Shown in pieces: positions 1 through 5,328 of a DNA stretch of 10,584 nucleotides. The notes below the pieces were generated by a model. That model was not told the DNA's origin, made no database searches, and worked only from the letters and a program-made list of their open reading frames with translations. How positions within the stretch are numbered: the first letter of the stretch is position 1; each line of letters begins with the position of its first letter. The DNA is taken from the NCBI GenBank assembly GCA_050330455.1, contig JBHJNV010000034.1, positions 1 through 10,584 on the forward strand, given 5' to 3'. This stretch comes from Bernardetiaceae bacterium. Lineage in GTDB: Bacteria; Bacteroidota; Bacteroidia; Cytophagales; Bernardetiaceae. The position numbers were made by a program, and so were the translations under genes.

Positions 1-821
1 TTGATTTTTTTAATTTGATATAAGGGTTCTGCGGGTTTAGTTTCTTGTATTTTTACCCGATATTCAGGCTCAAAAATAATCTGCCTTAAACCTTCAAAAG
101 TTGGATTGGCTTTTATCCAAGTGAAATTACCTATTTCTTCTATTTTATGAGCATCAGAAGTATGCACAACAGATTTAGGAACAGCATTTTCATACCTTGA
201 TTTATCAAGAAAATGATTTCTATCTTGGCTACGCCCAAAGAAGAAATTTGCTTTTTTATCAAATATCTCAGCAATGGCAACACTTCTACCTTCTTTATTA
301 TTTGAGCGAAAACCACCGTAACCGTTTGGACAACAAACTATAAGATAGTCCTCATATTCTATAAAATCTTTTTGAAGTTGGTTTAATAAAGTTTCGTCAT
401 TTACAACAGATGTACTGAAGTCGTTGTTGCTTGTCAAATTATTACAATATGTATCTGTTTTAGTTTGCAACCTACCTAAAAAACTATGAATTGCAGTATT
501 ATCAACTCTATCAGGATTGAAAATGATATGCAAGTTGATATATTCACCACTCTTGTTAGGCTGTGCTATACGAAATTCCAAATTTGGCAAAACTAAGATG
601 TGATGCTGATTAAGCTTTGCCTTCACTGTGTTCAATTCATTTTCTGCAAAACGGAAGTAATTAGTCAAACCAATAACCCTAACTCCACTATCGACAATTC
701 TCTGACCCCAATTATCCCATTCATTATTGAATTGGTTGTTCAAGTGAGTCATTGGGCTATGCACATGCAAATCCCACTTTGCCCATTCAGAGCCTTTTGG
801 ATATGGATTGTATCTTGCCAT
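1..821 (-). CDS. N-terminal part of a PHP (polymerase/histidinol-phosphatase) phosphoesterase domain protein. Start codon at 821..819; the 3' end lies beyond the window. Possibly the PHP module of a TrlF-like SMC/AAA ATPase.
   Basis: Reverse-strand translation from the ATG at 821..819 gives MARYNPYPKGSEWAKWDLHVHSPMTHLNNQFNNEW..., uninterrupted to position 1 (~273 codons). PHP hallmarks are present: the DLHVHS first motif, a conserved His in ...YINLHIIFNPD..., and the terminal HTSDAHKIEEIG (SDAH) motif. An in-frame stop lies 4 codons upstream of the ATG. The gene sits in a markedly AT-rich block unlike the rest of the window. It is missing from the supplied ORF track only because it is open at the window edge. 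Confidence 0.7.
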   Translation of the reverse strand, partial: MARYNPYPKGSEWAKWDLHVHSPMTHLNNQFNNEWDNWGQRIVDSGVRVIGLTNYFRFAENELNTVKAKLNQHHILVLPNLEFRIAQPNKSGEYINLHIIFNPDRVDNTAIHSFLGRLQTKTDTYCNNLTSNNDFSTSVVNDETLLNQLQKDFIEYEDYLIVCCPNGYGGFRSNNKEGRSVAIAEIFDKKANFFFGRSQDRNHFLDKSRYENAVPKSVVHTSDAHKIEEIGNFTWIKANPTFEGLRQIIFEPEYRVKIQETKPAEPLYQIKKI

Positions 822-3645: not shown

Positions 3646-4752
3646 ATGCCCGTTAAGCCACCCGATCAAGTAAACTGGGATTTTATTGTAGAAACGATCC
3701 GTACCGAGCGTTGTGTGTTGATGCTAGGCCCTGAGGTGGCGCGTAATGCCGAGGGCTTATCGCTTTATCAGTCGCTCCTGGAAAGCCTCGACCTAAGCAA
3801 CCAGGCAAAGGTACGTTATTACAACGACGATGAGTTTTTTTTCTTTCGCGACCCTTTGGCCAAAACGAGGGCCGTTTTTGATATTCAGCAGTTTTATGCT
3901 CGGCATAGTCCCTCGCCGCTTTTTGAGCAAATTCTCCAAATTCCTTTCCATCTGTGTATCTCTGTTTCGCCGGACTTGATGCTGCGTCAGTCTTTTGAGC
4001 AGTACAACTTGCCCCATCGCTTCGACTACTACCGCAAGTACGAGAACCCCCAAGCGATCGAACGTCCTACGCAAGATTATCCCCTGATCTACAATCTCTT
4101 TGGTGCTATTGAGGATGATGAATCGCTGATCTTTACCCACGAAGACCTCTTCGAGTTTTTGTTCGCCATCCTGGGGGATCGGAAGCTACCACGCGGGCTG
4201 GAGAGCCAACTCCAAAGTGCCAAAAACTTTATTTTTTTGGGCTTTAAGTTCGATAAATGGTACGTTAAGTTGCTCTTGCGTTTGTTGAGTTTGCATACGG
4301 GAAACTTCTTGCGCTACGCTTCTTATAGCCAGGATTCGGTCGAGACGCTCAACTTTTGTATGGATCACTTTCGGATTGATTTCATTGACCTAAGCATGGA
4401 TGATTTTGTTCAGACCCTCTACGACCGCTGTCAGGAACGCGGGATGCTCCGCCCACTCTCGACGAGCGATACCGTACAAACGCCCTGGGAAATCATCCAG
4501 GGATACATCCGAAAAGACGAAGTGAAGGCGGCTTTGCTCAAAATCGAAAGCTACCTAGCTCCCCTGCCCCAGGAGGAGGAACTCCTCACGACGCTCACCC
4601 TGCTGATGAGCCGCTACAACCGCCTCCAGCGAAAGATCACCAATGGGGTCATCGACGAGGACGAATCCGAACGCCAACTCAACCGCATCAAACAAGATGT
4701 CCTTAGCCTCGGGGAAGCCCTCCAGGAAATACTTGAAGAACAGCAGCTATAG
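3646..4752 (+). CDS. SIR2_2-like (ThsA/DSR-type sirtuin-fold, putative NAD+-consuming effector) protein with a C-terminal alpha-helical effector-associated-domain-like module
   Basis: 368 aa with ATG at 3646. Motif matches to the SIR2_2 family, with the first two motifs in canonical order:
- N-terminal ...WDFIVETIRTERCVLMLGPEVA... corresponds to '...vvlFlGAGvS'.
- ...PLIYNLFGAIEDDESLIFTHEDLFEFL... corresponds to 'iyKLHGs.....lvlTeeDY..f'.
- ...NFIFLGFKFDKWYVKLLLR... corresponds to 'lLFiGySl.D..i..ll'.
The C-terminal ~90 aa (PWEIIQGYIRKDEVKAALLKIESYL...LLMSRYNRLQRKITNGVIDEDESERQLNRIKQDVLSLGEALQE) is an all-helical module. Its 'SRYNRLQRK..G.I..DE...E.NRI' pattern recalls the effector-associated domains of conflict-system effectors. 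Confidence 0.65.
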   Translation: MPVKPPDQVNWDFIVETIRTERCVLMLGPEVARNAEGLSLYQSLLESLDLSNQAKVRYYNDDEFFFFRDPLAKTRAVFDIQQFYARHSPSPLFEQILQIPFHLCISVSPDLMLRQSFEQYNLPHRFDYYRKYENPQAIERPTQDYPLIYNLFGAIEDDESLIFTHEDLFEFLFAILGDRKLPRGLESQLQSAKNFIFLGFKFDKWYVKLLLRLLSLHTGNFLRYASYSQDSVETLNFCMDHFRIDFIDLSMDDFVQTLYDRCQERGMLRPLSTSDTVQTPWEIIQGYIRKDEVKAALLKIESYLAPLPQEEELLTTLTLLMSRYNRLQRKITNGVIDEDESERQLNRIKQDVLSLGEALQEILEEQQL

Positions 4753-4757
4753 CCACC

Positions 4758-5132
4758 ATGGAAAGCACCTTGCATTTGGCAGATAACCTGCGTTGGCTGC
4801 GCCAGGAACACGACCTAACCCAGGATCAGCTGGCCCAGATACTCGACCTCAAGCGCAACACCATCACGGCTTATGAGAGCCAAAGAAGCCTACCGCCCCT
4901 GCCCATCTTGATTCGTTTGGCGGGATACTTTCAGGTGAGCATCGACCATCTCTTATTCTGGGACTACAAAGCCGATGCCCCCATAGATGATACACCTGCC
5001 GCTTCCGAACGCGAAACCTTGCGCCAGCACTACGAAGCCTTACAGATCGCGTACCTACGTCAGGAGATTCACTGCCGCCAGGAGATCATACGCCTCAAAG
5101 AAGAACTCCAACAACTCAAGGGCGATCTTTGA
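4758..5132 (+). CDS. XRE/Cro-C1-family helix-turn-helix transcriptional regulator with a C-terminal coiled-coil
   Basis: 124 aa. The ATG at 4758 lies 5 nt after the SIR2-like stop (TAG 4750-4752), so the two genes are probably co-transcribed. LRWLRQEHDLTQDQLAQILDLKRNTITAYESQRSLPPLPILIRLAGYFQVSIDHLLF is a textbook HTH_XRE. The C-terminus ETLRQHYEALQIAYLRQEIHCRQEIIRLKEELQQLKGDL has heptad-like coiled-coil character. Confidence 0.75.
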   Translation: MESTLHLADNLRWLRQEHDLTQDQLAQILDLKRNTITAYESQRSLPPLPILIRLAGYFQVSIDHLLFWDYKADAPIDDTPAASERETLRQHYEALQIAYLRQEIHCRQEIIRLKEELQQLKGDL

Positions 5133-5328
5133 GCGGGCAGGTATTGACCCCAATCAGGGTGTATAGCCCACAAAAGCGAACCGTCGCCGTGGCGGCCAGG
5201 GCAATGCCCCCAACCAAGACAACCCAGCCTAGGGTTCCGGCAACGACTCCACTGGCGTACAAGACCACCAAGATAAGGGCTACGGCGTAGCGGATCAGTC
5301 GGTCTATTTTTCCTACGTTTGTTTGCAT
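5116..5328 (-). CDS. DUF2892 (YgaP-like) small membrane protein
   Basis: 70 aa, MQTNVGKIDRLIRYAVALILVVL...TVRFCGLYTLIGVNTCP. It has two hydrophobic helices plus the conserved C-P/G-L-Y...G..TC motif of the DUF2892 family. ATG at 5328..5326. Its 3' end overlaps the HTH gene's 3' end by 17 nt (convergent). Confidence 0.65.
   Translation of the reverse strand: MQTNVGKIDRLIRYAVALILVVLYASGVVAGTLGWVVLVGGIALAATATVRFCGLYTLIGVNTCPLKDRP

Follow-up and report, generated by a model that had tools for sequence, protein, structure and literature searches.

A degenerate SIR2-like protein with an EAD11 tail from a Bernardetiaceae bacterium, a candidate orphan adaptor of a two-gene nSTAND1 cassette

Here, we describe a SIR2-like protein from a Bernardetiaceae bacterium (Cytophagales, Bacteroidota) that carries an effector-associated domain, EAD11, as its C-terminal tail. 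Its gene (3646..4752, + strand; 368 aa) lies in a stretch of 10,584 nucleotides, hereafter the window, which corresponds to positions 1 to 10,584 of contig JBHJNV010000034.1 (assembly GCA_050330455.1). We lean towards regarding the protein as an orphaned pseudo-enzyme adaptor, an NTPase-coupled SIR2-like body with an EAD11 tail, rather than as an NADase effector. It would be an orphan because the NTPase gene that accompanies its relatives is missing from the window, where a gene for a helix-turn-helix (HTH) protein of the XRE family stands in its place. In these relatives, a SIR2-like protein and a transmembrane nSTAND1 NTPase make up a widespread, uncatalogued two-gene cassette, which is defined here. 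What the window alone shows is modest, namely, an orphan member whose activity would depend on partners.

The EAD11 tail and the SIR2-like body

The tail under study (4480..4749, + strand; residues 279-368) is a genuine EAD11 domain, far beyond chance. Pfam family PF19964 (EAD11, "Effector-associated domain 11") matched residues 284-357 of the whole protein with 49.5 bits (E=4e-13) and the excised 90-aa segment with 53 bits (E=3.5e-14), the protein thus scoring at about twice the curated gathering score of 26 bits. An effector-associated domain at residues ~280-368 had already been proposed in a preliminary description made from the sequence, and the motif quoted there turned out to be the conserved core, LLxSRxxRLxRKxxxGxIxxxxAxxxxNxI, of alignment A1, in which the 90-aa segment and 38 homologous tails are combined. 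The helical nature of the segment was likewise anticipated; the number of helices, given as two or three, was not, as the AlphaFold2 model shows a bundle of four (residues 280-289, 293-304, 311-332, and 338-367). The mean predicted local distance difference test score (pLDDT) reached 92.2 over the full protein and, for the EAD11 domain alone, 96.8.

Word-indexed protein searches with the 90-aa segment alone or with an EAD11 alignment returned almost no matches, the query being too short, and an exhaustive profile search was used instead. Among 1.84 billion proteins, searched as cluster representatives, the A1 profile matched 7653 at E<=0.001, 560 of them with E<=1e-10. The domain, which here comprises about 88 residues, is all-alpha, and lies C-terminal to SIR2_2, occurs in varied architectures in these relatives. 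Among 57 EAD11 proteins without SIR2, Pfam identified the effector-type domains TIR_2 (7 proteins), Peptidase_C14 (5), CHAT (5), and Trypsin_2 (4), the NTPase domains nSTAND1 (4), KAP (3), NACHT (3), NB-ARC (2), and Roc-COR (2), and also leucine-rich repeats. This bears out the initial expectation that the domain is shared by TIR, trypsin, caspase, and SIR2 effectors and by STAND-type NTPases. EAD11 itself is already known (PF19964), and the combination of SIR2_2 with EAD11 is precomputed for dozens of database proteins. Outside the window, the profile also matched proteins of 1100-1600 aa with 5-8 tandem EAD11 copies (P0084, P0085, P0086, and P0091), and in P0084 Pfam recognised seven EAD11 units and nothing else. 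Such proteins could be hubs or scaffolds for EAD11-tagged partners.

The SIR2-like Rossmann domain occupies residues 1-275 (3646..4470, + strand) and was assigned by Pfam, Foldseek, and profile alignment. SIR2_2 (PF13289) matched residues 110-220 with 38.2 bits, against a cut-off of 24.5, and the best structural matches of the AlphaFold2 model were ThsA, KomC, and DSR2 (Foldseek E=3e-10 for ThsA to 1e-6). A full-length alignment retrieved only noise from the PDB sequences, and detection of ThsA (E=2.6e-12) and KomC (E=3e-8) required a broader profile restricted to the SIR2 core (A6), built from 25 diverse SIR2 cores of the protein's family. In the A6 profile alignment, the family motif "slspd" falls on ThsA TTNYD, which places S108 of the window protein opposite ThsA N112, and "YnLlG" falls on ThsA KMHG, which places F152 opposite ThsA H152 and KomC H146. 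The window protein thus reads G28-P29-E30 for GAG, S106-V-S108-P-D110 for TTNYD, and Y149-N-L-F152-G for xHLHG. The substitutions N112A and H152A inactivate ThsA, and corresponding mutants appear in the titles of PDB entries for DSR2 (H171A) and KomC (H146N). Because all three NAD-site motifs are degenerate and such mutants of ThsA are known to be inactive, we predict that the window protein is devoid of canonical NADase activity.

The degeneration extends well beyond this protein. In an alignment of 75 distinct SIR2 proteins from the SIR2-like and nSTAND1 cassette, only 8 retained both the catalytic Asn and the catalytic His. These canonical members are distant from the window protein and belong to other phyla. 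They read GAG or GSG, T[TS]N[YF]D, and xH[LF]HG and are short, with 285-349 aa; the EAD11 profile matched none of them, and a Pfam scan of the 313-aa protein in L081, the only one so scanned, returned SIR2_2 alone. They come from contigs labelled Terriglobia, Pyrinomonadaceae, Acidobacteriota, Udaeobacter, Acidimicrobiia, Pseudomonadota, and Marinifilum. GPE, SVSPD, and YNLFG are the motifs of the window protein and its Bacteroidota relatives. The annotation "SIR2 family protein" invites the reading as an NAD-depleting abortive-infection effector, and the motif census argues against this reading for the whole Bacteroidota clade.

The protein shares the SIR2_2-type Rossmann fold and the defence-island context with the NADases ThsA (Thoeris), DSR2, and KomC/HAM-SIR2 (PDB 6lhx, 8bto, 7uxt, 8wyb, 8zsi). 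Unlike ThsA and KomC, it has Ser108 and Phe152 in place of the catalytic Asn and His, and GPE in place of GAG. It also lacks the C-terminal SLOG/STALD sensor of ThsA and the long helical sensor of DSR2, and has the C-terminal EAD11 instead. As for Thoeris, the PADLOC match of the protein to ThsA was confined to the SIR2 part (E=0.038), and the window contains no TIR (ThsB) gene.

The nSTAND1 partner and the exchangeable tail

In the relatives, the SIR2-like gene is followed by a gene for an nSTAND1 NTPase (PF20703). This gene lies directly 3' of the close homologues P0002, P0005, P0014 (Rapidithrix thailandica), and P0028, that is, on four of four long contigs; the window protein is 74% identical to P0002 and 45-47% identical to P0005 and P0014, all three of them cassette members. 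The nSTAND1 products at these four loci are 627-700 aa long, or 1711 aa where WD40 repeats are present, and are orthologous, with 41-51% identity over about 500 aa and divergence beyond. A scan of JGI metagenome contigs was seeded with a pattern of the SIR2 core only, and hence unbiased with respect to neighbours. It returned 80 loci, of which 70 had at least 300 nt 3' of the SIR2 gene and could be assessed. In 63 of these 70, an nSTAND1 gene followed immediately on the same strand, and in 3 more it lay within about 1 kb, so that at least 66 of 70 have the partner. The remaining four show merely 359-1133 nt of downstream sequence; in one of them (L103) the next gene, the only downstream gene identified, encodes an apolipoprotein N-acyltransferase.

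A scan of one genome per species used a chimeric query, an alignment of the window SIR2 joined to the nSTAND1 of L005, and is therefore biased toward the pair. About 75 of the 80 loci kept had both genes; their hosts were mostly Saprospiraceae, Lewinellaceae, Chitinophagales, Flammeovirgaceae, and Spirosoma, with some in Acidobacteriota, Verrucomicrobiota, and Proteobacteria. The SIR2 stop and nSTAND1 start codons of paired loci frequently overlap. Moreover, a single 779-aa open reading frame (ORF) in L029 fuses nSTAND1, SIR2, and EAD11, as confirmed by Pfam. This locus (3806-13206) contains, in order, an EAD11-trypsin gene, a second SIR2-like gene, the fusion, another nSTAND1 gene, and a gene for a 254-aa protein with a C-terminal EAD11.

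The partners themselves carry no EAD11: none was recognised in them by Pfam, the EAD11 profile with filters off and E values up to 100 gave no match in the four close partners, and at E<=1e-3 it gave none in the nSTAND1 ORFs of the other cassettes. There is also no room for an N-terminal adaptor, since the NTPase module begins at about residue 5. In 113 of 130 partners, a strongly hydrophobic 19-mer, a predicted transmembrane helix, was found within 120 residues past the NTPase module. This helix typically lies about 30 residues after the module and precedes a variable region of coiled coil, WD40 repeats, or other types (L004-L168). The nSTAND1 partner thus appears to be usually membrane-anchored, possibly with a periplasmic sensor, which would be unusual for STAND proteins.

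The tail of the SIR2-like protein is exchangeable. EAD11 is replaced by a TIR domain on the degenerate SIR2-like body in P0041-P0062 and at L015, L038, L053, L058, and L102; EAD7 (PF19960) fills the slot in P0078 above the cut-off and in P0076 and L046 below it; and in P0034 and L041 the tail is a coiled coil or nothing recognisable. The TIR-bearing proteins (P0041, L015, L038, L053) have an orthologous degenerate body, with 33-46% identity to the window protein over the aligned SIR2-like part, and the four TIR loci read for context (L015, L038, L053, L102) have the same downstream nSTAND1 gene. They differ from the window protein in having TIR where it has EAD11, so that its output would presumably be recruited in trans instead of being fused in cis. 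Next to some EAD11-type cassettes, we found further EAD11 genes, encoding EAD11-CHAT (L012), EAD11-trypsin (L029), EAD11-TIR (L093), and TIR-EAD11 (L119), as well as EAD11 fused to unknown regions (L004, L010, L114, L122, and L029). A full set, with SIR2-EAD11, nSTAND1-WD40, and a second EAD11 protein, is present in R. thailandica (GCA_039710355.1), a sequenced, named species that offers an experimental handle on the complete cassette.

These observations alter the picture drawn in the preliminary description, in which the window protein was the effector arm of a dispersed system, pairing homotypically through its tail with a matching domain on an NTPase encoded at a distance. The designation as an effector arm is doubtful because the catalytic Asn, the catalytic His, and the GAG loop of the SIR2-like domain are all replaced. 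The partner expected at a distance is a neighbouring gene in the relatives, as seen at no fewer than 66 of the 70 metagenome loci that could be assessed, and the link between SIR2-like protein and NTPase does not look like a homotypic EAD11 pair, as the adjacent nSTAND1 protein lacks EAD11. An active SIR2 NADase effector whose EAD11 pairs with an EAD11 on an unlinked STAND or AAA NTPase therefore seems quite unlikely to us. It would agree with the fusions, seen elsewhere, of EAD11 to NTPases of the nSTAND1, NACHT, NB-ARC, KAP, and Roc-COR types, and with the window copy having no partner within 15.7 kb, so that any partner would have to be unlinked; it is at odds with the substituted catalytic residues, with the adjacent, EAD11-less NTPase of the relatives, and with the finding that the EAD11 neighbours are effectors (TIR, CHAT, trypsin) and not NTPases.

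The cassette nevertheless belongs to the wider landscape of EAD-coupled NTPase conflict systems (Kaur, Burroughs, Iyer & Aravind, eLife 2020, PMC7159879; Kaur et al., eLife 2021, PMC8195603). Common to both are a small, non-catalytic, all-helical terminal domain that is found on TIR, caspase/CHAT, trypsin, and SIR2 proteins as well as on STAND-type NTPases, nSTAND1 as the associated NTPase clade, and a host in a filamentous family of Bacteroidota. According to the EAD principle, one copy of the domain resides on the core NTPase component (Kaur et al. 2020, PMC7159879). In the present cassette, unlike in those systems, the core nSTAND1 is devoid of EAD11, which is instead borne by the degenerate SIR2-like product of the upstream gene. 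The window lacks this NTPase gene altogether. A second EAD11 was found neither in the window and the 15.7 kb of its sister contig nor on the adjacent nSTAND1 proteins of the relatives. Avs5 and other single-chain SIR2-STAND NTPases also combine a SIR2-like module and a STAND NTPase in one defence unit, and the natural fusion in L029 resembles them in this respect. Unlike Avs5, the present family normally comprises two genes, its NTPase belongs to the nSTAND1 clade and has a transmembrane helix, its SIR2 is predicted to be inactive, and output would be left to the TIR or EAD tail.

An adaptor model

We propose that the SIR2-like body, once an effector, would now serve as a constant docking module for the nSTAND1 NTPase. 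The NTPase would sense the trigger and oligomerise, upon which the clustered tails would act. A TIR tail would act directly, in cis; an EAD11 or EAD7 tail would be an adaptor, recruiting matching-tagged effectors made elsewhere or bundling with itself. The orphan copy in the window, if working, would need an NTPase and EAD11-tagged effectors from other loci of the genome, with which it would act in trans. Its partners may thus be unlinked, and within the adaptor framework this would be its sole way of acting. The XRE-family HTH protein encoded next to it probably controls its expression.

It is tempting to go further, although we consider the generalisation somewhat less probable than not: Bacteroidota "SIR2 family proteins" of this type might as a rule be dedicated pseudo-enzyme adaptors descended from an active SIR2 effector, not NADases, that link a membrane-anchored nSTAND1 to interchangeable outputs, with TIR in cis and EAD11- or EAD7-tagged TIR, CHAT, and trypsin in trans, as a counterpart to ASC or MyD88, and orphans under an XRE regulator might plug into NTPases and effectors encoded elsewhere. 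The likeness to the metazoan Death-fold and TIR adaptors ASC, MyD88, and FADD is a functional analogy only, namely, a non-enzymatic bridge from an oligomerising NTPase or receptor to effectors via small helical domains. The step from effector to adaptor is familiar from eukaryotic innate immunity, and we did not find it described for bacterial STAND systems in the literature searched. In the literature on EADs, nSTAND1, and SIR2 combined with STAND, we likewise found no account of the degenerate SIR2 clade, of its constant association with a transmembrane nSTAND1 that lacks an EAD, or of the swappable tail; the supplementary tables of Kaur et al., which were outside that search, may list such architectures. 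PADLOC v2 has no model for the nSTAND1 partner and gave only weak matches for the SIR2-EAD11 protein.

Several points weigh against the adaptor model. The coupling of the SIR2-like body to the NTPase is read from gene order and one fusion. A second EAD11 gene lies nearby in only 8 of 98 SIR2-EAD11 loci, and there is none in the window or along the 15.7 kb of its sister contig. Where EAD11 copies are adjacent, their mutual identity (22%) does not stand out from that of random pairs (21%) and hence gives no co-evolution signal for homotypic pairing, contrary to the trend reported by Kaur et al. The EAD11 fold showed no match to the Death-fold and is a generic helical bundle, for which reason self-association of EAD11 appears equally plausible. 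In the SIR2-like body, G28, D110, G153, G199, and W205 remain conserved, and loss of Asn and His would be compatible with non-canonical chemistry or with ligand binding. Finally, the orphan SIR2-EAD11 copy may be doing nothing.

The orphan gene and its surroundings

The last of these points amounts to a further explanation, in which the nSTAND1 gene was lost from the cassette and what is left, the SIR2-EAD11 gene, is a decaying remnant without a role. We regard this as unlikely, though as the strongest of the alternatives. At least 94% of the assessable relatives retain the adjacent NTPase gene, of which the window holds no trace; there is no second EAD11 nearby; and the locus lies in a strain-variable defence region with evident gene turnover. 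A search by tblastn with four nSTAND1 partners revealed neither a gene nor a pseudogene remnant of one in the window or in the sister contig (L001). The state of the SIR2-EAD11 gene itself speaks against decay: the ORF is intact and of full length, with the near-invariant residues of the family all kept. The identical product is listed at NCBI as MGF1533698.1 ("MAG: SIR2 family protein [Bernardetiaceae bacterium]", assembly GCA_964537755.1), a protein from a metagenome-assembled genome (MAG), and the pair of SIR2-EAD11 and HTH genes is identical in three assemblies, the NCBI MAG and two independent Logan assemblies. The downstream regulator gene is, moreover, tightly coupled, with a 5-nt spacer. 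Other intact orphans exist as well, namely, P0003 (locus L006), which is 58% identical to the window protein and has a convergent HEPN (RiboL-PSP) gene next to it, and the gene at L103 followed by the apolipoprotein N-acyltransferase gene. Orphan copies are thus rare but recurrent, and intact. At L006, the HEPN gene of the RiboL-PSP type is a fragment (4476-4811, - strand) and is overlapped by the 3' end of the orphan gene, which thus also has a neighbour of defence type.

The XRE-family gene (4758..5132, + strand; 124 aa) starts 5 nt past the TAG stop codon of the SIR2-EAD11 gene and occupies the nSTAND1 slot of the relatives. Its product has an HTH_3 domain (Pfam, 49 bits) and a coiled-coil-like C-terminal tail. 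It matched HTH_VI, Control_protein (C-protein), and capH in PADLOC, and showed similarity below the cut-offs to RstR-like proteins (NCBIfam) and to regulators of the HipB, PezA, and MqsA types. Viral contigs and phage genomes yielded only weak, generic similarity to Cro/CI-type repressors over the HTH.

Taken by themselves, the two genes might form a self-contained module, either toxin/antitoxin-like or of a regulator and its effector, that needs no NTPase. The 5-nt spacing, which implies co-transcription, and the resemblance of the HTH protein to the antitoxin and defence regulators named above would fit this explanation. We nevertheless consider it improbable, and the least likely of the alternatives: the SIR2-like domain lacks the catalytic residues, so a toxic activity is not evident from its sequence, the SIR2-HTH pairing is unique to the lineage of the window, with the HTH protein the sole member of its 90%-identity cluster, and an HTH gene at that position was seen in none of the other family members examined.

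A convergent gene for a YgaP-like membrane protein (5116-5328, - strand) follows the HTH gene, and the two share 17 nt (5116-5132) at their 3' ends. The GC content of the SIR2-HTH pair is 44-49%, versus 52-55% in the flanks, and this lower content suggests an insertion. The search for mobile-element boundaries around the pair revealed only short, chance-like repeats. Neither a tRNA nor an Rfam match was detected in the window, and the scan for sigma-70-type promoters gave no match there, as expected, since it does not cover the promoters of Bacteroidota.

The left end of the window (1-821, - strand) is AT-rich, with 31% GC, and holds an ORF of at least 273 aa that runs off the edge. This ORF begins with a PHP-like "WDLHVHSP" and gave weak PADLOC matches to Ppl (E=2e-5) and PDC-M49A. 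The first 818 nt of the window differ from the otherwise 99.9%-identical NCBI MAG contig L001, in which a Gabija gajA gene (475 bits), interrupted so as to form two ORFs and containing Ns, lies at the same position (3-1833). The left end looks like a strain-variable defence slot, and the comparison shows that the window stems from a sister strain of the MAG. Just past the right end of the window, L001 (11605-13287) carries a HEPN/MNT-type pair, consisting of NTase_sub_bind and a Polbeta nucleotidyltransferase, and an HNH_2 endonuclease gene; these genes come after a CHU_C/PKD gene and add to the defence-island character of the region. Within the window, an ORF of 180 aa without a Pfam match (2182-2724, + strand), with a hydrophobic N-terminus, is conserved in the sister contigs.

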